Position numbers and translations under genes: made by a program. DNA of 64,000 nucleotides from Gemmatimonadota bacterium (GTDB lineage: Bacteria; Gemmatimonadota; Gemmatimonadetes; Longimicrobiales; Gaopeijiaceae), in contig JAJEBW010000021.1 of assembly GCA_022822325.1 (NCBI GenBank), forward strand, positions 40,280 through 104,279, given 5' to 3'. The notes under the pieces were generated by a model. It was given only the letters and a program-made list of their open reading frames with translations. It was not told the origin of the DNA and made no database searches. Within the stretch, counting starts at the first letter, position 1. Each line of letters starts with the position of its first letter. This document shows positions 9,357-32,750 of the stretch, piece by piece.

Positions 9357-11252
9357 CTACCCCGGATTCACCATGACCGTGATGTGCGTGGGGTGCGCCG
9401 CCGATCTGTACACGCGCTGGGTCGCCTTCCGGAAATCGCTCTCCACCGCCTCGAAGATGTTGGGCACCCAGCTTTGGGGATTGCGGTCGATGACGGGGAA
9501 CCAGGTGCTCTGGACGTGCACCATGATCCTGTGGCCGGCCTGAAAGTGGTGGTCGCGGTGGTGCAGGCTGAAGGAGTATTCGGTGATTTCGTTCGGGACA
9601 ACGGGTTCGGGGATGCGGAAGCTGTTGCGGAAGCGCGCCCGGAAAACCTCGCCGGCGACCATGTACTGGTATCCTCGCAACGCCGGATCGGGATGATCTT
9701 CGGGATAGACGTCGATCAGCTTGACGATCCAGTCGGCCCCGCCCCCGCTTGTCGACGCGAACAGATTCGCCATGATGTCGCCGGTGATCGAGAAGCCGTC
9801 CGCAAGGGGCTCCGATTCCCAGGTGAGCACATCGGGCCGGCCATCGACGAAGCGCTGGTCCTCGGCCTGCCAGAGGTGCCAGCGGTCGTAGTGAATGGGG
9901 CGGTGCTGGAAGGGGACGGGATTGTCGGGATCGGAGACGTACTCGTCGTAGGCCGTTTCGGCCGCGGTGGCGGGCGGCGGATCGAAGGACACGATCCCAT
10001 CCGCGCGCAGATGGAGGTTGCGCGGCTCCATGCCCTCGGGGGGCCAGCTTTCGTAGTGCTTCCACTCGTTGGAGCCGGTGCGGAAGGTGATGGCCTCGGC
10101 GGCGGGCAGCGAACCCTTGTCCTTCAGCCAGTATGCGAACCAGGGGGCGTGAATCTCGTAGCGGAAGTGGCGCGCGGTCTCGTGCACAAGATCGAAGTCG
10201 AGCACCCGCCGTCCCACCTCGTCGAAGGTCCAGCCGCCGTGCCGCCAGGGACCCAGCACAAGGAAGTTCTCGTTGTCGGCGTCGTCGGCCTCGAGCTGCC
10301 TGTACACCTCGATGGGGCCGTAGAAGTCCTCGGCGTCGTACCAGCCGGTGACGTGGAGCGCGGGAACGGTCATGCCCTGCAGAAAGGGGAAGACGCCGCA
10401 CATCTCCGTCTCCCAGTATTCGTCCATGTTCGGATGCGCCACAAAGTCGTTCCACATGCGGGAGCGGCCATGCAGGATTTCGCGATTGACGCGCGAGAGC
10501 GGGCCCATCTTCAGGTAGCGGCTGTACTTGTCCCAGTCGCCCTCCGGAGGCCACTCCTCGGGAGGCATCTCGAAGCGCACCGCGGCCTCGTAGGCGTAGT
10601 GAAGGCGGAAGGCGCCGTTGTGGTGGAAGTCGTCCCCGACGAACATGTCGGCGCAGGTCGCTTGCGGCGAGACGGCGGCCAGCGCGGGGTGCGGATCGAC
10701 CATGGCGCGCGTGGCGAGGAAGCCGCCGTAGGAGATCCCCCAGGTGCCGACGCGGCCGTTGTTGGCGGGCACATTGTTGACGAGCCACTCGATGGTGTCG
10801 TAGAAGTCGGTGGATTCGTCGATGGCGTCCGCGTCGTCCGGATCGCGGTTGGGGCGCAGCGTGACGAACTCGCCCTCGGATTCGTAGCGTCCGCGCAGAT
10901 CCTGGAGAACGAAGATGTAGCCCTCGTCGAAGAACTCCTCGTACCAGTCGAGCCGGATCGAGTATTCCTGGTCCTGCGGATTGGCGTAGTAGGGGGTGCG
11001 CTCGAGCATGATCGGGAGCGGCTCGGTGCGGTCCCGCGGAATGTAGATCTCGGTGTGAAGCCGCACGCCGTCCCGCATGGGTATCATCACGTCCCATTTC
11101 GGTTCGAAGATCGCGGCCAGATCGAGGTCGGCGCGGTCCTCGTAGGGGTAGCGCGTCATGAGCTCCTGGGCGTAAGCGGGGGCGGGGGAAGGGAGGGCCA
11201 GGAGGGCGGCGGGGAGGGCCAGGAGGAAGCTGGGGAATCGGGGGCGCGTCAT
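9357..11252 (-). CDS. CocE/NonD family hydrolase (X-Pro dipeptidyl-peptidase, S15 type)
   Basis: Track ORF 9357..11345, start at ATG 11252 (MTRPRFPSFLL..., signal peptide ...PAYAQ). Nucleophile motif GISYGG. Long C-terminal beta-sandwich region. Confidence 0.9.
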   Translation of the reverse strand: MTRPRFPSFLLALPAALLALPSPAPAYAQELMTRYPYEDRADLDLAAIFEPKWDVMIPMRDGVRLHTEIYIPRDRTEPLPIMLERTPYYANPQDQEYSIRLDWYEEFFDEGYIFVLQDLRGRYESEGEFVTLRPNRDPDDADAIDESTDFYDTIEWLVNNVPANNGRVGTWGISYGGFLATRAMVDPHPALAAVSPQATCADMFVGDDFHHNGAFRLHYAYEAAVRFEMPPEEWPPEGDWDKYSRYLKMGPLSRVNREILHGRSRMWNDFVAHPNMDEYWETEMCGVFPFLQGMTVPALHVTGWYDAEDFYGPIEVYRQLEADDADNENFLVLGPWRHGGWTFDEVGRRVLDFDLVHETARHFRYEIHAPWFAYWLKDKGSLPAAEAITFRTGSNEWKHYESWPPEGMEPRNLHLRADGIVSFDPPPATAAETAYDEYVSDPDNPVPFQHRPIHYDRWHLWQAEDQRFVDGRPDVLTWESEPLADGFSITGDIMANLFASTSGGGADWIVKLIDVYPEDHPDPALRGYQYMVAGEVFRARFRNSFRIPEPVVPNEITEYSFSLHHRDHHFQAGHRIMVHVQSTWFPVIDRNPQSWVPNIFEAVESDFRKATQRVYRSAAHPTHITVMVNPG

Positions 11253-11398
11253 GGGCGGATCTCTGCTTTTCGGCGGATGGCGTGTGGTTCGCTGGCGATG
11301 GCGTGCCCGTGAACTGGTGCGGGCGGGGTTGCTCCCCGCGCCCACTTCCGCAATGATGTAGTCCCCTGATAACCGCGATTCGGATCCCAGAGGCGAAT

Positions 11399-11632
11399 GT
11401 GACCTATATCATCACCGAGCCGTGCATCGGCACCAAGGATGCGAGCTGCGTGGAAGTGTGTCCAGTGGACTGCATCTACGAGGCTGGCGACCAGTACCTC
11501 ATCCACCCGGACGAGTGCATTGACTGCGGCGCCTGCGAGCCCGAGTGTCCGGTGCAGGCGATCTTCCCCGACACCGACGTTCCGCCGGAATGGAGCGATT
11601 ATATCGAGAAGAACGCGGTCCACTTCGAGTGA
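11399..11632 (+). CDS. fdxA: 7Fe ferredoxin ([3Fe-4S][4Fe-4S])
   Basis: 77 aa, GTG start, MTYIITEPC... Cys patterns Cx7Cx3CP and CxxCxxCxxxCP. Confidence 0.9.
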
Positions 11633-26382: not shown

Positions 26383-28479
26383 ATGAGACCACGGCCCGCT
26401 CACCCGACCGCTCACGCCACCGCCCTCGCGGCCACCCTCGCCGCCCTCGCCACCGCCGCCCTTCCCCCCACCGCCCTCGCTCAGAGCGAGATGGCCGTCC
26501 TCACCGCCGAGGACGTCTTCGACCTGGAGTACGTCAGCGAGCCGCGGATGTCGCCCGATGGCGACCGGATCGTCTTCGTGCGCGAATGGGCCGATCCCCA
26601 CACCGACCGCCGCTTCGCCAATCTCTGGATCATGAATGCGGACGGCTCCGATCAGCGCCCCCTCACCTCCGGGAAGCAATCCGACACCTGGCCCCGCTGG
26701 TCGCCCGACGGAGGCAGGCTGCTCTACCTCTCCGACCTCTCCGGGTCGTCGCAGATTCACATTCGCTGGATGGACACCGGGGCCACCAACCAGATCACCA
26801 ATCTCGCGCAGCCTCCGCGCGTTCCCGCCTGGTCGCCCGACGGTTCGCGGATCGTCTACTCCGCCTTCGTGTCCGATCCCGGCTTGCAGCTCATCTCGAT
26901 GCCGAGCCCCCCGGAGGGCGCCGAGTGGGCCGAACCCGCCCGCGTGATCGACGAACTCGTCCACCGCTTCGACGGCGCCGGCGATCTCGACCATGGCTTC
27001 ACCCACCTCTTCGTCATTCCCTCGGAGGGAGGCGCCCCGCGGCAGCTCACGAGCGGCGACTTCCATCATGGCGGCTACGTGGGGCGTTCGGGTGCGGGCA
27101 GGCCGGTCTGGTCCGCCGACGGCAACTCGGTTCTCATCTCCGCCAATCGCCACCCGGACGGGGAGCTGGAGAATCGCAACACCGAGGTCTACGAGATTTC
27201 GCTCGACGGCCGGATCCGCGCGCTGACCGATCGCGAGGGACCCGACGGCGGCGTGGCCGCATCGCCCGACGGCCGCTGGATCGCCTACGCCGGCTACGAC
27301 GACCGCTACCAGGGTTACCAGGTGACGGGATTGTACATGGCCAATCGCGACGGATCGGGGGCGCGCCAGGTCGCGGCGGAGCTCGACCGTTCGGTGGGAG
27401 GGCTGGCGTGGTCGCCCAACTCGGAGCGGCTCTACTTCTCCTACGCCGACCACGGCAACACGAAGATCGCCTGGGTCGAGCCCGGCAGCGACGAGGTTCA
27501 CATCGCGGCCGACGACATGGGCGGGACCGGTTCGGCCTATGGCGGGGGAAGCTTCTCGGTTGGCCCCGGCGGGACGATTGCCTTCACCCACTCCACGCCC
27601 ACCGTGCTGAGCGAGGTGGCGGTCGCGCGGGATGGCGCGGGGGCGCGGGTGCTGACCGCCGTCAACGACGATGTGCTCGCGCACCGGACCCTGGGCGAGG
27701 TGGAGGAGATCCGGTGGCCCTCGTCGCACGACGGGCTCGAGATGCAGGGATGGATCATCAAGCCGCCCGGATTCGATCCTGCGCGGCGCTATCCCCTCAT
27801 CCTGGAGATTCACGGGGGACCCTTCGCCAACTACGGCGACCGCTTCGACGTCGAGAAGCAGGCGATGGCCTCTGCGGGCTACGTCGTTCTCTACACCAAT
27901 CCCAGGGGAAGCACCAGCTACGGCGAAGAGTTCGGCAATCTCATCCACCACGCCTATCCCGGCAACGACTTCCACGATCTTGACTCGGGGGTTGACGCGG
28001 TCGTTGCACTGGGCTATGTGGACCCGGACCAGCTTTACATAACCGGTGGCAGCGGCGGGGGTGTGCTGTCGTCCTGGTCGATCGGCAAGACCGACCGCTA
28101 CCGCGCGGCCGCCGTCCTCTACCCCGTCATCAACTGGTACAGCTTCGCGGTCAGCTCCGACATTCCGATCACCGTGGCGAAGTACTGGTTCCCGGCCATG
28201 CCCTGGGATGATCCCGAGCACTACATGTCGCGCTCGCCGATCTCGCTCGTCGGCAATGTGACGACGCCCACCATGGTGATGACCGGCGTGGAGGACTACC
28301 GCACGCCGATGTCGGAATCGGACCAGTACTACCAGGCGCTCAAGCTGAAGGGGGTGGAGGCTGTGCTGGTCAAGGTTCCCGGCGAGCCGCATGGAATCCG
28401 CGTCCGCCCGAGCCACTTCATGCAGAAGATCAAGTACATCGTGGGCTGGTTCGACCGGTACCGGGGGATGGCGTCGTGA
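26383..28479 (+). CDS. S9 family serine peptidase, paralogue of 720..2822
   Basis: Track ORF 26044..28479, start at ATG 26383 (MRPRPAHP..., signal peptide ...ALAQ). SPDG propeller repeats. Nucleophile GGSGGG. Collinear with the first S9 protein along its whole length. Confidence 0.9.
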   Translation: MRPRPAHPTAHATALAATLAALATAALPPTALAQSEMAVLTAEDVFDLEYVSEPRMSPDGDRIVFVREWADPHTDRRFANLWIMNADGSDQRPLTSGKQSDTWPRWSPDGGRLLYLSDLSGSSQIHIRWMDTGATNQITNLAQPPRVPAWSPDGSRIVYSAFVSDPGLQLISMPSPPEGAEWAEPARVIDELVHRFDGAGDLDHGFTHLFVIPSEGGAPRQLTSGDFHHGGYVGRSGAGRPVWSADGNSVLISANRHPDGELENRNTEVYEISLDGRIRALTDREGPDGGVAASPDGRWIAYAGYDDRYQGYQVTGLYMANRDGSGARQVAAELDRSVGGLAWSPNSERLYFSYADHGNTKIAWVEPGSDEVHIAADDMGGTGSAYGGGSFSVGPGGTIAFTHSTPTVLSEVAVARDGAGARVLTAVNDDVLAHRTLGEVEEIRWPSSHDGLEMQGWIIKPPGFDPARRYPLILEIHGGPFANYGDRFDVEKQAMASAGYVVLYTNPRGSTSYGEEFGNLIHHAYPGNDFHDLDSGVDAVVALGYVDPDQLYITGGSGGGVLSSWSIGKTDRYRAAAVLYPVINWYSFAVSSDIPITVAKYWFPAMPWDDPEHYMSRSPISLVGNVTTPTMVMTGVEDYRTPMSESDQYYQALKLKGVEAVLVKVPGEPHGIRVRPSHFMQKIKYIVGWFDRYRGMAS

Positions 28480-29669
28480 GCGTTCTCCCCCGCCGAGCGA
28501 TCCTCAGGGCCGCCGCCGGGGCCGCGGGAGCCGCCCTCGCCGCGCCCTTCCTCAACCTGGGACGCGTTCGCCTGCACGCCCGCAGCTCCGCGAATCCCGC
28601 CCTTTCCCCCGTTCTGCAGGAATACTCCACCCGCTGCGTCGATCTGGTCACCGGTTCGCTCGTGATCGACATGCTCGCGCCGCTGGCCATCGCCCGCTCG
28701 ATTCAGCAACGCTGGGGACCGGACCTGAGCGGCATGACCGCCGCCGAGGAACGGGAGTTTCGCGATTCCCGCATCGACGTCTTCCACATTGCCGTCGGGA
28801 TCGGGGGGCGCGACTCCGCCGACCAGGCCCGCAACTCGCTCCTCTTCGTCTCGGGCTACAACGCCTCCATCGCGGCGCGTCCCGATCTCTTCGTGCGCAT
28901 CGATTCCGCCGGGGACCTGGCCCGCGTGCACGGCTCCGGCCGCATCGGCATTCTGATCGGGCTCCAGACCTCGTCCCACTTCCACAGCCTCGACGACGTC
29001 AACATGTACCACGGTCTCGGCCAGCGCGTCTCGCAACTCACCTACAACTCCCGCAACATGATCGGCAACGGCGCCACCGAGCGGGTCGACGGGGGCGTTT
29101 CGGACTTCGGGATGGCGATCATCGGGCGCATGAACGAGGTGGGGATGGCGGTCGACGTCTCGCACTCGGGCGACCGCACCACCCTCGACGCCTGCGAGAT
29201 CTCGTCGCGGCCGGTCCTCTTCACCCACTCGAACTCGCGCGTGCTCTCCGGCGGCCACCCCCGCACCAAGACCGACGAGGCGATCCGCGCCATGGCGGCG
29301 ACCGGCGGCGTGATGGGGATGACGGGCGTGCGCATGTTCGTAAAGGACCGCGAGCCGACCACGATCGAGGACTACATCGACCACTTCGACCATGTGCGCG
29401 ATCTCGTCGGCGTGGAGCACCTGGGCGTGGGCAGCGACGTGGACCTGCACGGCTACGACGACATGCCGGCCGACGAATACGCCGCGCTCAAGGCCGCCTA
29501 CAAGGACTCCTACGCCTTCCGCGACAAGATCGACATCGAGGGCGTGGACCACCCCAAACGCATGTTCGACCTGACCGAGGCGCTGATCCGGCGCGGCTAC
29601 ACCGACGAGCACATCCGCGGGATCCTGGGCGGGAACTTTCAGCGGGTGCTGGGCGAGATCTGGGGGTGA
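28476..29669 (+). CDS. Membrane dipeptidase (peptidase M19) with Tat-type signal
   Basis: GTG 28476 overlaps the S9 stop (GTGA). Twin-arginine PRRAILRAAAGAAGAALA. Motifs DVSHSGD, LFTHSNSR. Confidence 0.85.
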   Translation: MSVLPRRAILRAAAGAAGAALAAPFLNLGRVRLHARSSANPALSPVLQEYSTRCVDLVTGSLVIDMLAPLAIARSIQQRWGPDLSGMTAAEEREFRDSRIDVFHIAVGIGGRDSADQARNSLLFVSGYNASIAARPDLFVRIDSAGDLARVHGSGRIGILIGLQTSSHFHSLDDVNMYHGLGQRVSQLTYNSRNMIGNGATERVDGGVSDFGMAIIGRMNEVGMAVDVSHSGDRTTLDACEISSRPVLFTHSNSRVLSGGHPRTKTDEAIRAMAATGGVMGMTGVRMFVKDREPTTIEDYIDHFDHVRDLVGVEHLGVGSDVDLHGYDDMPADEYAALKAAYKDSYAFRDKIDIEGVDHPKRMFDLTEALIRRGYTDEHIRGILGGNFQRVLGEIWG

Positions 29670-29859
29670 GGGGCGGACCGGCCTGTATGAGGGTCGACGG
29701 GCGGCGGCGGACCGGAACCAGCGGGTGCCAGGGCGGAGCAGCCGGGCCGCATTGCCGCTGTCCCCGCGCGGGGCCGAGGGGAAAATTGCGGATTCCGCGT
29801 GTGGGGACTCCACTATCTGGAGCAAACCATCCTCACCACTGCACATGGAGAGAATCGAC

Positions 29860-30300
29860 ATGATGACTCGGAACCCGAAAACCACCGGTATCGCATTCGT
29901 CGTCGGAGCGCTCGCGCTGATCGTCGTTGGCTGCGACTCCTCCGGTTCCGCTGGACCGGAAACTCCCGCGGAGGCTACACCCACCATCACGGTCTTCGAC
30001 GGCAGTGATCCGGCTCGCGTCGAGATCAATGCACCGAAAGGCCATCGTGGACCCTTCAGGGTTCGCAGCATTTCCCAGGCCGGTGAGGTTCTCACGGAAA
30101 CGACCTTCGACCCGGCAAATCCAACTGCCAACCTTCCTTTTGCCACCCGGCAAATTGTGAACGATCCCGGATTGGCGGAAGTTATTCGCGAATTGCGACA
30201 GCAAGGACTTACGGTCCCGGAAATAGTTGATCGAGTACAAGAGTCCGTTGAATCGGGCGACGATCCACGGCTGGGCACAGTTCGCGAAAGGATCAAATGA
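29860..30300 (+). CDS. Hypothetical lipoprotein (low-GC islet)
   Basis: Track ORF 29725..30300. ATG 29860 is preceded by GGAGAG at 7 nt. MMTRNPKTTGIAFVVGALALIVVGC lipobox. No family recognised. Hand-counted 60-nt rows give about 50-57% GC against about 70% in the flanks. Confidence 0.6.
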   Translation: MMTRNPKTTGIAFVVGALALIVVGCDSSGSAGPETPAEATPTITVFDGSDPARVEINAPKGHRGPFRVRSISQAGEVLTETTFDPANPTANLPFATRQIVNDPGLAEVIRELRQQGLTVPEIVDRVQESVESGDDPRLGTVRERIK

Positions 30301-30804
30301 ATGAAAATGGTGATCCTGGGACTTGCCTTGGCAGCGATAACCTCACCCGCATTCGTTGCGGATTTGCGATCGGACGATGCGCCGGAAGTTTCCGCGTGTG
30401 CAATCCCCGATCGTGCGGCGTGCGCGATTCCTTTTGCGTCACAGACGGTTTGTCCCGAGTGCGAGGCGTGTACGAGAGTATGCGACGAACTCACCCGACT
30501 CGCTGCTGCGATTTGTATAGCCGCCGCCGCCGTTCCACACCCGGCTTCGGCGGCTACCTGCGCCGCGGCAGAGGCCGTTGCATTCGCGACGTGTCTTGAG
30601 TGCGACCGGATCTGCGAAGAATGCGCTGACGACGACGATGGACCAGGTGGGGGTGGGAACCGTGGTGGCGGCGACGATGATCCGCCACCGGGTGAGATCT
30701 GCGAATCCGGGCACTATTCTTCACAGGGCTTTTGCTGTGACGAGTGGTACCACGTACCCAAACCGGGAGGCGGATTTGCGGAAATGTGCGTGGTGTACAG
30801 CTGA
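30301..30804 (+). CDS. Secreted cysteine-rich protein (16 Cys in 167 aa) with two CxxC-containing repeat modules and a Gly/Asp linker
   Basis: The ATG follows the lipoprotein stop directly (TGA-ATG). Signal peptide MKMVILGLALAAITSPAFVA. Module A: C41-x9-C-x2-C-x2-C-x3-C. Module B: C87-x10-C-x2-C-x3-C-x2-C. Linker DDDDGPGGGGNRGGGDDDPPPGE. No family recognised. Confidence 0.6.
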   Translation: MKMVILGLALAAITSPAFVADLRSDDAPEVSACAIPDRAACAIPFASQTVCPECEACTRVCDELTRLAAAICIAAAAVPHPASAATCAAAEAVAFATCLECDRICEECADDDDGPGGGGNRGGGDDDPPPGEICESGHYSSQGFCCDEWYHVPKPGGGFAEMCVVYS

Positions 30805-31108
30805 CGCCGGGCAGGTCGTATAAGCGCCACCGATTTGGAGGCCGAGCGCTGCAGCATTCCGGCCATTGACGCAGGCCAGCGCCCTGCCGTGGATCCGGGT
30901 GGGTCCATCCGGATCAAGTCTGCTCCTTACCCTGCTCACAGACCGACGCTTCCGCAACCTGCTCAAGTCATTGGTCACTGGGATTTCCAGGAGCCACCAG
31001 CGCGTCCCACCGTAGGCACTGAAGGTCCATGAGGTAATCGCCGGGATACCGAGTGAATTCAAAGCGCGCCGTCCGTCTCATCGTCAATCTGCTTGCGGAG
31101 CCATCCGC

Positions 31109-31275
31109 GTGAGCCCCGTCTCCGAAACCATCGTCGAAGCCGCCGCCCTCGAATGGCTCGCCGCTCTCGGTTGGCAGGTCGCCCACGGCCCCCGACAATG
31201 CCCCGCACGCGGCGGGCGCACTACGAACAGACCACTCCGCGGTCGCTCTGGAGAACCAGTTGCGCGACGCCCCGT
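31109..31275 (+). pseudogene. hsdR: Remnant of a type I restriction enzyme R subunit (hsdR) N-terminus, frameshifted and truncated
   Basis: VSPVSETIVEAAALEWLAALGWQVAHGP matches the common HsdR N-terminus pattern (..E..lVE.pAl.wl..LGW....G). After a C5 run (31189-31193), dropping one base gives DNAPHAAGALRTDHSAVALENQLRDA, which resembles the usual ...ER.dY.eVVLe.rLRdAL continuation. The remaining roughly 1000 codons are absent. Confidence 0.55.
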
Positions 31276-31382
31276 CAAGACGAAGTTGGTCCGGACATCC
31301 TTCGCGTGGTCCGCCGCCACACCCCTATCTTGACCGGACCTGTCTTCACCCGACCCGCACGCCACAGGGAGAGCCCAACGGA

Positions 31383-32750
31383 ATGAAAGACGTCGGAAGC
31401 AACAGCAGAGGGGGTGCGCGCGCACCCGGTCCACACGGCCGCCATCCGGGCCGGCCCGCGCAGGGGCCGGAGGCCGGACCCCACACGGAACAGGGAACGG
31501 AGCCATGCGCTGCGCGCACGGCAATCCGAAGGGCGGCGACGGCGGCGTTGGCCCACGTGAGCCTGGTCCTGATCGCGCTGGCCGCCGCCCCTGACCCCGC
31601 CCCCGCCACCCCCCAGCCCACCCCCATCGCGCTGGTCGGCGCCCGCATCCACACCGCCGCGGGACCCGCCATCGAGAACGGCGCGATCGTCTTTCAAAAC
31701 GGGACGATCACCGCCATCGGCGAGGGCCTCGTTCCGCCCGCCGACGCCGAGACGGTGGACCTGAGCGGCATGGTCGTCATGCCCGGAATGCTCGACAACC
31801 ACTCCCACATCGGCGCCGACATCCGCGACCTCAACGAATTCCCGATTCGCTTCGGCCCGCAGCACCGCATCCGCGACGTGCTCTCGCCCGACGACGCCTT
31901 CTGGAACGACGCCGTAAAGGGCGGCGTGACGACGATCATTACCGGGCCCGGCAGCGGCGAGGTCTCGAGCGGCCAGGCGATCGTGGTCAAGACCTGGGGC
32001 CCGTCGCTCGAGGAGCGGATCGTGAAGGAGCGCGGCGGACTCAAGATCGCGATGGGGCGCAAACGGCCCGGCCAGTCGCCAACCACGAGCATGGCCGTCA
32101 CTGCGATGCTGCGCGCCAAGTTCATCGAGGCGCAGGAGTACCAGGCGAAGTGGGATGCGTGGGAAGCGGGCGGCCGGGAAGGCCCGGCCCCGCCGCGCGA
32201 TCTGGGAATGGAGGCGGTGGTCCGCGTCCTCGTCGGCGAGGACCGGATCCGCGCGCACGTCCACCAGGCGCACGACATCCTCTCGATCATCCGCCTCTCG
32301 CAGGAGTTCGACTTCCACCTGACCATTCATCACTCCACCGAAGCGTACAAGGTGGCCGACGAGATTGCCGAGTCCGGGACCGATGTGGTGGGAATGCCGC
32401 TCTTCACCCGCATCGCGCTGTCCGACGAGGTCATGACCACCGGCACGCTGATGAACGAGATGGGCGTGCGCTTCACCTTCCACACCGACGACCCGGTGGT
32501 GGGCTCGAAGTGGCAGCGGGGCAACGCGGGGCTCGGGATTCGCCATGGAATGACCGAACAGGACGCGCTGGAGGCGGTGACGATCAACCCGGCCGCGATC
32601 GCCGGAATCGAGGACCGGGTGGGCAGCCTGGAGGTGGGCAAGGACGCCGACGTCGTGGTGCTGAACGGAACCTGGTACGAGGTCAGCACATTGGTGACGC
32701 GAGTGTACGTCGATGGGACGCTCGCCTACGACCGGGAGGAGGAACGATGA
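31383..32750 (+). CDS. Amidohydrolase family metallohydrolase (secreted; metal ligands intact)
   Basis: Track ORF 31260..32750. ATG 31383 is the first ATG, but the true start could be an internal non-ATG codon before the hydrophobic segment LAHVSLVLIALAAA. HxH motif MPGMLDNHSHIG. Later AHVH, IHHSTEA, FHTDDP. Confidence 0.8.
   Translation: MKDVGSNSRGGARAPGPHGRHPGRPAQGPEAGPHTEQGTEPCAARTAIRRAATAALAHVSLVLIALAAAPDPAPATPQPTPIALVGARIHTAAGPAIENGAIVFQNGTITAIGEGLVPPADAETVDLSGMVVMPGMLDNHSHIGADIRDLNEFPIRFGPQHRIRDVLSPDDAFWNDAVKGGVTTIITGPGSGEVSSGQAIVVKTWGPSLEERIVKERGGLKIAMGRKRPGQSPTTSMAVTAMLRAKFIEAQEYQAKWDAWEAGGREGPAPPRDLGMEAVVRVLVGEDRIRAHVHQAHDILSIIRLSQEFDFHLTIHHSTEAYKVADEIAESGTDVVGMPLFTRIALSDEVMTTGTLMNEMGVRFTFHTDDPVVGSKWQRGNAGLGIRHGMTEQDALEAVTINPAAIAGIEDRVGSLEVGKDADVVVLNGTWYEVSTLVTRVYVDGTLAYDREEER

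Follow-up and report, generated by a model that had tools for sequence, protein, structure and literature searches.

Some toxin/immunity pairs, among them the effector-immunity pairs of type VI secretion systems and colicin M with Cmi, rely on an immunity protein that is a periplasmic lipoprotein. Cysteine-rich helical proteins are known from quite different sources. The alpha-hairpinins, antimicrobial peptides of plants, are Lys/Arg-rich, and in them a CXXXC-(X)n-CXXXC signature forms a helix-loop-helix closed by two disulfides (PMC4695807). The copper storage proteins Csp1 and Csp3 are built of Ala-rich helices whose inward face is lined with cysteines in number, and Csp1 is exported (PMC9484137). 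Here we describe a two-gene cassette that recalls each of these systems in part. It was found in a 64-kb stretch of contig JAJEBW010000021.1 from an uncultured Gemmatimonadota bacterium of the Longimicrobiales (the window), and it encodes a lipoprotein followed by an exported protein with 16 cysteines. The cassette occupies a real, well-delimited acquired islet and its products represent two new orphan protein families, the second of which is predicted to follow a cysteine-ladder design. Although soils and marine hosts harbour Gemmatimonadota in abundance, hardly anything is known of how these bacteria deal with their neighbours or construct their envelopes.

The islet lies between genes for an M19 membrane dipeptidase and an amidohydrolase. 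The comparison of synteny called for in the original prediction finds these two genes adjacent in relatives: they are neighbours in at least 17 same-genus genomes in which both were matched, with aligned blocks approximately 85-250 bp apart. Against the closest genome (G011; further related genomes named below are G008, G009, G044 and G047, and the host genome of the window is G000), homology ends shortly beyond the stop codon of M19, at 29673, and restarts at 31400, giving a spacer of 1726 bp in the window versus 88 bp in G011. Homology is lost on the left at 29663-29673 in all nine relatives compared (G011 and eight more). From the adjacency in same-genus relatives it follows that 29674-31399 is an insertion of at most 1726 bp. 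Composition sets the segment apart as well. In 300-nucleotide windows, GC is 0.54-0.60 at 29800-30550 and 0.60-0.65 on to approximately 31150, with flanks at 0.66-0.72; the minimum of 0.543, at 30051, is the lowest of the whole window (mean 0.684, standard deviation 0.036, a deviation of some 3.9 standard deviations). The low-GC islet first noticed by hand counting is therefore borne out, the figure of 50-57% having been slightly low. The inserted segment as a whole has a GC of 0.62, against 0.684 for the window, and GC at third codon positions (GC3) is 0.58 in the lipoprotein gene and 0.59 in the Cys-rich gene, compared with 0.88-0.92 in the S9 peptidase, M19 and amidohydrolase genes. Missing from the same site in relatives and atypical in composition, the islet is horizontally acquired. 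In one Longimicrobiales lineage, up to 1.7 kb of foreign DNA has been inserted between the M19 and amidohydrolase genes, and it contains an intact, translationally coupled two-gene cassette and a dead hsdS-hsdR junction (Table 1).

Table 1. Features of the acquired islet and of its native flanks, with the lipoprotein homologues in other contexts
Feature	Coordinates	Strand	Basis or remark
Islet, an insertion of at most 1726 bp that relatives lack	29674..31399	.	Synteny with relatives
Lipoprotein gene, 146 aa	29860..30300	+	Open reading frame (ORF); ribosome-binding site GGAGAG 7 nt before start; homologues
Cys-rich exported protein gene, 167 aa, 16 Cys	30301..30804	+	ORF; homologues
Sec-type signal peptide, aa 1-20, MKMVILGLALAAITSPAFVA	30301..30360	+	Read from sequence; no twin-arginine motif
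Predicted Cys-ladder helical hairpin, aa 51-108, Ala-rich hydrophobic tip	30451..30624	+	AlphaFold2 (AF2) model; conserved Cys offsets
Acidic Gly/Asp-rich flexible linker, aa 109-132	30625..30696	+	Predicted local distance difference test (pLDDT) score <50; Gly-rich linker in all members
Predicted C-terminal four-Cys aromatic beta-hairpin knot	30697..30801	+	Conservation; AF2 strands
Lipoprotein homologues	L009 7111-7605; L025 2977-3447; L026 2104-2586		Directly upstream of Cys-rich homologues
hsdS 3' pseudogene remnant (type I restriction specificity)	30832..31063	+	tblastn vs HsdS of G047 and G009
hsdR 5' pseudogene remnant (residues ~1-57), frameshifted	31109..31281	+	tblastn, DNA identity, by-eye reading
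M19 membrane dipeptidase gene, native left flank	28476..29669	+	Pfam Peptidase_M19, E 2e-69
Amidohydrolase gene, native right flank	31500..32750	+	Pfam Amidohydro_1 and Amidohydro_3; start putative
Dispersed intergenic repeat, ~65 bp, REP-like	31410..31474	.	41 further G000 matches, 82-92% identity

The two genes stand back to back, with the lengths and the cysteine count originally read from the sequence, the ATG of the Cys-rich gene directly abutting the TGA of the lipoprotein gene. Homologues of the pair could be read in context in three further places, the same-genus genome G008 (L009) and the metagenome contigs L025 and L026, in each of which the lipoprotein stop overlaps the Cys-rich start as ATGA. 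Order, with the lipoprotein first, and coupling (ATGA or TGA-ATG) are thus the same in all four readable contexts, the window included. The four are mutually unrelated, and the pair recurs in the other three at 25-47% identity. That the ORFs might prove to be non-coding was one of the refutations envisaged at the outset; a homologous pair in fixed order and coupling speaks against it. We reject the idea of spurious ORFs because both are conserved as a pair, and on this comparative evidence we regard them as real genes.

Relatives are few. A word-indexed search with the window proteins returned near-identical copies only. Run exhaustively over 1.84 billion representative proteins, phmmer added four Cys-rich relatives (E 3e-21 to 1e-10, 40-54% identity) and a six-frame search one more, in G008, with 15 Cys invariant between it and the window protein. 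The lipoprotein homologues, of 156-164 residues and with a lipobox, share 25-32% identity. Among 401 sampled Gemmatimonadota genomes the profiles of both genes are positive in G000 and G008 only; in the host's taxonomic family the Cys-rich profile finds 2 of 314 genomes. The Cys-rich cluster itself is tiny: approximately seven sequences, each an unnamed protein from a metagenome, out of 15 billion; two scans of metagenome contigs and one of viral contigs gave no more members, and a scan of genome contigs gave the G008 copy alone. In the three other contexts cassette GC3 is 0.50-0.68, against 0.76-0.92 in neighbouring genes. The cassette, as judged from these searches, is a conserved and extremely rare unit, so far seen only in Gemmatimonadota-like DNA.

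The original prediction recognised neither protein, and nor did any of our searches. Neither the two proteins nor their homologues have a family in Pfam (E up to 1), NCBIfam, PADLOC or PHROGs. Sequence-profile searches of the PDB with both family alignments found no relative, with Csp, colicin and hevein proteins all absent from the results. Foldseek gave nothing at E <=0.1, either for the Cys-rich model against the PDB, where generic helical hairpins alone appeared, or for the lipoprotein model against the PDB and BFVD. As far as these methods reach, the cassette defines two protein families without detectable relatives.

The cysteine spacings of the exported protein, C41-x9-C51-x2-C54-x2-C57-x3-C61 and C87-x10-C98-x2-C101-x3-C105-x2-C108, and its C-terminal peptide are as first described. 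The spacings had been taken for two similar CxxC modules, a reading of duplication that we revise: the cysteines are better seen as those of the mirrored arms of one predicted hairpin, with C41 outside it. Counted from the loop, those of arm 1 (C72, C61, C57, C54 and C51) lie at offsets 0, 11, 15, 18 and 21 and those of arm 2 (C87, C98, C101, C105 and C108) at 0, 11, 14, 18 and 21. Five full-length members were compared (window, G008, P0003, P0004 and P0005; P0006 was added for the knot), and in all of these except P0004 the mirrored offsets are kept within one residue. Across the family the numbers of arm cysteines covary, as 5+5 or 4+4, and on each helix they are confined to an arc of at most 120 degrees. 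Mirrored offsets, covarying counts and one-face placement together make hairpin arms a better reading than tandem CxxC modules. The AF2 model, made from the single sequence, has a disordered N-terminal stretch, helices at 52-76 and 81-110 (pLDDT 83-88), a disordered linker and knot strands at 145-153 and 159-165 (pLDDT 71-82), with a mean pLDDT of 66 over the whole.

Conservation is greatest at the C-terminus, where the knot motif C-x-SG-[HR]-[YW]-S-x2-G-x-CC-x16-C is the strongest block of the family and keeps a spacing of 11/1/17 (16 in P0006). C72, C87, C101 and the four knot cysteines are invariant, and a further conserved Cys precedes the hairpin by approximately 10-16 residues. The hairpin tip, between the 11-residue rungs, is rich in Ala, Ile and Val, with a mean Kyte-Doolittle value of 1.1-1.8 and best 19-residue windows of 1.6-2.5, whereas its open end and the linker are acidic. 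A true transmembrane hairpin was considered and rejected, since the arms of the window protein hold Asp, Glu and Arg. The mature proteins are acidic overall, with isoelectric points (pI) of 4.0-4.4 in four of five members; that of the window, with 147 residues and a pI of 4.05, has 26 Asp/Glu to 7 Lys/Arg and almost no His or Met. The protein is probably a Sec-exported, Ala-rich antiparallel helical hairpin with a ladder of four to five disulfides, C72-C87 clamping the hydrophobic tip, followed by the linker and an aromatic knot with two disulfides of its own.

The alpha-hairpinins, together with the twin Cx3C and twin Cx9C CHCH proteins, offer the nearest structural idea, namely antiparallel hairpins with inter-helix disulfides between cysteines that are spaced one helical turn apart on each arm. 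CxxxC occurs on both arms of the present protein too (C57/C61 and C101/C105), in a predicted helix-loop-helix. It is predicted, though, to have four to five rungs where the alpha-hairpinins have two, together with a tip that is Ala-rich and hydrophobic and helices 25-30 residues long, and it is bacterial, Sec-exported, strongly acidic and much longer, with an additional linker, a four-Cys knot and an obligatory lipoprotein partner gene. Sequence homology to alpha-hairpinins or CHCH proteins was not detectable, and a bacterial mature protein of this length and pI does not share the short, Lys/Arg-rich make-up of the plant defence peptides. A ferredoxin-type 4Fe-4S site, in which the cofactor goes in before export by the Tat route, was rejected: the CxxCxxCxxxC spacing of C51-C61 in the window is lost in P0003, P0004 and P0005, there is no Fer4 match in Pfam, the segment is predicted to be helical, and the leader is of the Sec type without a twin-arginine motif.

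In the host genome, matches to VKOR and to a DsbA-like protein (Thioredoxin_4) lie approximately 140 bp apart on the same strand (G000:C35:5007-5968), and a second DsbA-like protein is also encoded; DsbB was not detected in G000. With these VKOR and DsbA-like proteins, exported cysteines can be oxidised, and the gene content suggests a system of the VKOR type as the source of envelope disulfides in this lineage. The main rival of the effector reading that we develop below takes the opposite view of the cysteines. Reduced and lined up on one face, they would bind Cu(I) or another soft metal through their thiolates, two hairpins would come together in a Cys-lined bundle of four helices like that of Csp1, and the lipoprotein would serve as a metal-handling partner. 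Ten (or eight) cysteines do line one face of two Ala-rich helices, in a protein that is both exported and acidic, and the odd Cys totals of the family suit ligands better than disulfides. Against this, the Sec leader would route the protein through an oxidising periplasm equipped with VKOR and DsbA, His and Met are almost absent, and none of the four contexts contains a gene for a metal transporter, sensor or resistance function. Csp1 and Csp3 are single-chain four-helix bundles whose Cys-lined core binds many Cu(I), whereas the monomer is predicted to be a two-helix hairpin, and no copper genes are nearby. Neither Csp nor any other metal-binding family is reached by sequence, whether in Pfam (E up to 1) or with the six-member profile in the complete set of PDB sequences (E up to 10), and membership of the Csp family on sequence was rejected. 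The mirrored pairing of the two arms favours disulfides over a Csp-like arrangement, and we regard metal binding as unlikely.

The partner is a lipoprotein by inspection: its signal peptide ends in LIVVGC-DSS, as read by eye, where VVGC agrees with the lipobox pattern [LVI][ASTVI][GAS]C at the end of an N-terminal signal peptide and Asp stands at +2. The homologues end in LAVAC-DG (L025), GLAC-EN (L026) and MFAC-HD (G008), the last being a poorer fit because Met occupies -3 and Phe -2. Position +2, next to the lipidated Cys, is Asp in the window and L025, Glu in L026 and His, then Asp, in G008, making it acidic in three of four. In Escherichia coli, Asp at +2 brings about inner-membrane retention, a rule that may not hold in this phylum. 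In an AF2 model from four sequences (mean pLDDT 67), a sheet of four strands precedes four short helices, and the lipoproteins have pI values of 4.3-4.9.

The contexts of the homologues bear on what the pair may do. In G008, codon 21 of the Cys-rich gene (L009 7602-8105, record OZ241864.1), which falls within the signal peptide, is an in-frame TAG, while the lipoprotein gene upstream is intact; a fragment of an IS3-family transposase lies approximately 460 bp downstream on the opposite strand. The L025 pair has in its neighbourhood an MsbA/HlyB-like ABC exporter, genes for NHL/DUF5128-like propellers and small secreted four-Cys peptides. In L025 and L026, two of the four contexts, the pair is followed within 3-41 bp by a gene of cassette-like composition for a secreted CarboxypepD_reg protein (L025 3944-5791 and L026 3094-4194, one product being of 366 aa and possibly truncated). 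Proteins of this family are secreted, have approximately 600-700 aa and carry an N-terminal CarboxypepD_reg domain, the remainder being without a family match. Paralogues in G000 (C15:73377-74360 and C2:136241-137191) are unlinked to the pair and have unrelated housekeeping contexts; for this reason, and for want of a family for the remainder, the neighbour was dropped as a clue to function. The secreted four-Cys peptides of L025 are two in tandem, of 69 aa (11124-11333 and 11402-11611), ending in YYYP.

The overall best explanation, which we put forward tentatively, is an acquired cassette whose predicted disulfide-ladder hairpin protein and lipoprotein would act as effector and partner. The mechanism proposed within it, an envelope effector with an immunity-like or tethering lipoprotein, is possible but doubtful. 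The knot would bind an envelope ligand and the clamped hydrophobic tip would engage a membrane or a partner protein. In the periplasm, the co-translated lipoprotein would attach to the hairpin protein and either neutralise it, in the manner of an immunity protein in interbacterial antagonism, or hold it at the membrane. We favour this effector/partner reading because the distribution is sporadic and mobile and both partners diverge fast, because the G008 copy combines an interrupted Cys-rich gene with an intact lipoprotein gene, a pattern expected of orphan immunity, and because the L025 pair sits amid the exporter, the NHL-like propellers and the four-Cys secreted peptides. The hydrophobic hairpin tip lends it further support. 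In all this the cassette resembles the toxin/immunity pairs, as a small, coupled, mobile, fast-diverging two-gene unit with a periplasm-facing lipoprotein and, in one copy, a broken 'toxin' gene beside an intact lipoprotein gene. It differs from them in that the candidate effector, an acidic protein, has a Sec signal of its own, genes for delivery or release are absent, and no homology to known effector or immunity families was found.

Several observations weigh against the effector/partner reading. Neither protein has homology or a fold match to toxin, bacteriocin or immunity families. The acidity of four of the five exported members is unlike that of most membrane-active peptides, and it argues against a classical cationic bacteriocin. 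The cassette genes offer no route across the outer membrane and no evident means of release, and in P0003 it is the Cys-rich protein that bears a lipobox, a sign of residence in the envelope rather than release. The ladder is imperfect in P0004, where three rungs match and one is not aligned, and most members have an odd Cys total (13 or 15), so that at least one thiol must be unpaired. The structural models were built on one and four sequences and reach mean pLDDT values of only 66-67, and the TAG in G008 is a single observation that could be an assembly error.

Some of these points would be accommodated by a module without any antagonistic role. On such an account the Cys-rich protein would be a stable structural or adhesive component of the envelope, its knot binding glycan or peptidoglycan, the lipoprotein acting as a tether or chaperone and the CarboxypepD_reg protein cooperating where present. 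The close linkage and shared composition of that third gene in two of four contexts, the apparent lipid anchor of P0003 and the acidity of the proteins, which is atypical of toxins, are all in keeping with it. So are the conserved aromatics beside the CC pair of the knot, a feature that small carbohydrate-binding knots display as well. Yet no carbohydrate-binding or adhesin family is matched, the CarboxypepD_reg paralogues of G000 are unlinked to the pair, and a housekeeping role is ill-suited to genes found in 2 of 314 genomes of the family, one of them with a nonsense codon. We consider this account improbable, on a par with metal binding. A hevein-like (chitin-binding type 1) knot was rejected separately: hevein has an eight-Cys fold with the motif CCS-x-[WY]-G-[WY]-CG, and the present knot has only CC followed by aromatics in common with it, contains four Cys rather than eight and gives no Chitin_bind_1 match at E up to 1.

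Should the effector/partner reading be right, the pair could represent a novel kind of envelope effector, partnered by a lipoprotein. It is a more speculative proposal still that it founds a new class of bacterial exported effectors, in which a hydrophobic-tipped disulfide-ladder hairpin would be aimed by a small aromatic knot, restrained by a dedicated lipoprotein of the inner membrane and moved among Gemmatimonadota as a competition module; if true, the ladder would be denser than in any hairpin family compared here. A Cys ladder across a helical hairpin would, once confirmed, also provide protein engineers with an unusually rigid small scaffold. The cassette itself remains a well-described orphan rather than a functional discovery.

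The right third of the islet has its own parallels, in type I restriction-modification operons. Some 300 bp beyond the Cys-rich gene had been set aside as unassignable, but much of this proves to be an hsdS remnant by tblastn. Beginning directly after the Cys-rich gene, it matches the C-terminal quarter of HsdS, residues ~385-510 of 563, at 46-56% identity (E 2e-14 and 2e-8 with a 901-bp subject); the match is split between two frames by one frameshift and contains one in-frame stop. The remnant also has DNA matches to G047, G044 and G009. The degraded hsdR fragment recognised from the outset is upheld: 31188-31280 corresponds to HsdR residues 27-57 of G009 (tblastn, E 1e-7 with the 901-bp subject), and the scrap has 81% DNA identity to G000:C35. 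Residues 1-27 match by eye only, against the L020 HsdR, in another frame at 31109-31192, and Pfam HSDR_N matches the scrap weakly (E 0.26). The order, S then R, is that usual in type I operons, and the matches are to the C-terminal region of HsdS and the N-terminus of HsdR of related genomes. Unlike those operons, the islet retains only approximately 230 bp and 170 bp, interrupted by frameshifts and by a stop, and has no hsdM, so that the restriction remnant is nonfunctional. G009 has an intact type I system, whose hsdS and hsdR are separated by an ORF of 117 aa (L020 5612-5965); this ORF has no counterpart in the window remnant.

These remnants invite two further explanations of the pair. The proposal of a horizontally acquired island, perhaps for defence, is upheld as to acquisition and restriction debris, and the question is whether the pair belongs to the same function, as part of an anti-phage defence island that cooperates with the type I system beside it or takes its place. 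Defence genes often cluster in variable islands, and hsdS and hsdR remnants are indeed directly downstream. No member of either family has a PADLOC or PHROGs match, though, the other three contexts are without defence genes, and both proteins are exported whereas most defence effectors are cytoplasmic, so that a defence role for the pair is very improbable. Alternatively, the pair might be passenger DNA that arrived by recombination together with the restriction debris, has no current function in its host and is drifting towards loss. Two dead genes adjoin it, its codon usage is unadapted to the host, a scan around it for sigma-70-like promoters and terminators found nothing beyond chance, and the G008 copy is interrupted. 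On the other side, both frames are intact and preceded by good ribosome-binding sites, in a second strain, known from a different sample, the Cys-rich gene has been retained and differs by one silent and one conservative change, and all structural cysteines and the knot have been kept across the family at an overall identity of 38-47%. We consider passenger status distinctly unlikely, less so than a part in defence.

At the junctions of the islet, scans for a target-site duplication and for terminal repeats gave nothing beyond chance, and no integrase or transposase is found among the ORFs there. Contig L038, from another sample, carries 30204-31828 of the window at 99.1-99.6% identity, a span that takes in the Cys-rich gene and the islet to its right. 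It is without the 35 bp at 31334-31368, a strain-level indel in the unassigned tail. A copy of the dispersed repeat adjoins the right junction, just within native sequence; the repeat is GC-rich, has an internal palindrome and occurs in same-genus genomes, among other places upstream of the G011 amidohydrolase orthologue. Rfam searches gave no match for the islet or for this repeat. The islet offers a small, clean example of foreign genes and dead restriction genes gathering at one intergenic site by a dispersed repeat.

The flanking genes are well conserved, with DNA identities of 82-87% to same-genus genomes for M19 and 84-87% to relatives for the amidohydrolase. The listed ORF of the latter begins at 31260 and so crosses insert and repeat, leaving its true start uncertain. 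G011 holds the M19-amidohydrolase region twice with near-equal scores, at G011:C3:3006604-3009228 and G011:C1:85743-88367, which reflects either a large duplication or redundant contigs of the assembly.

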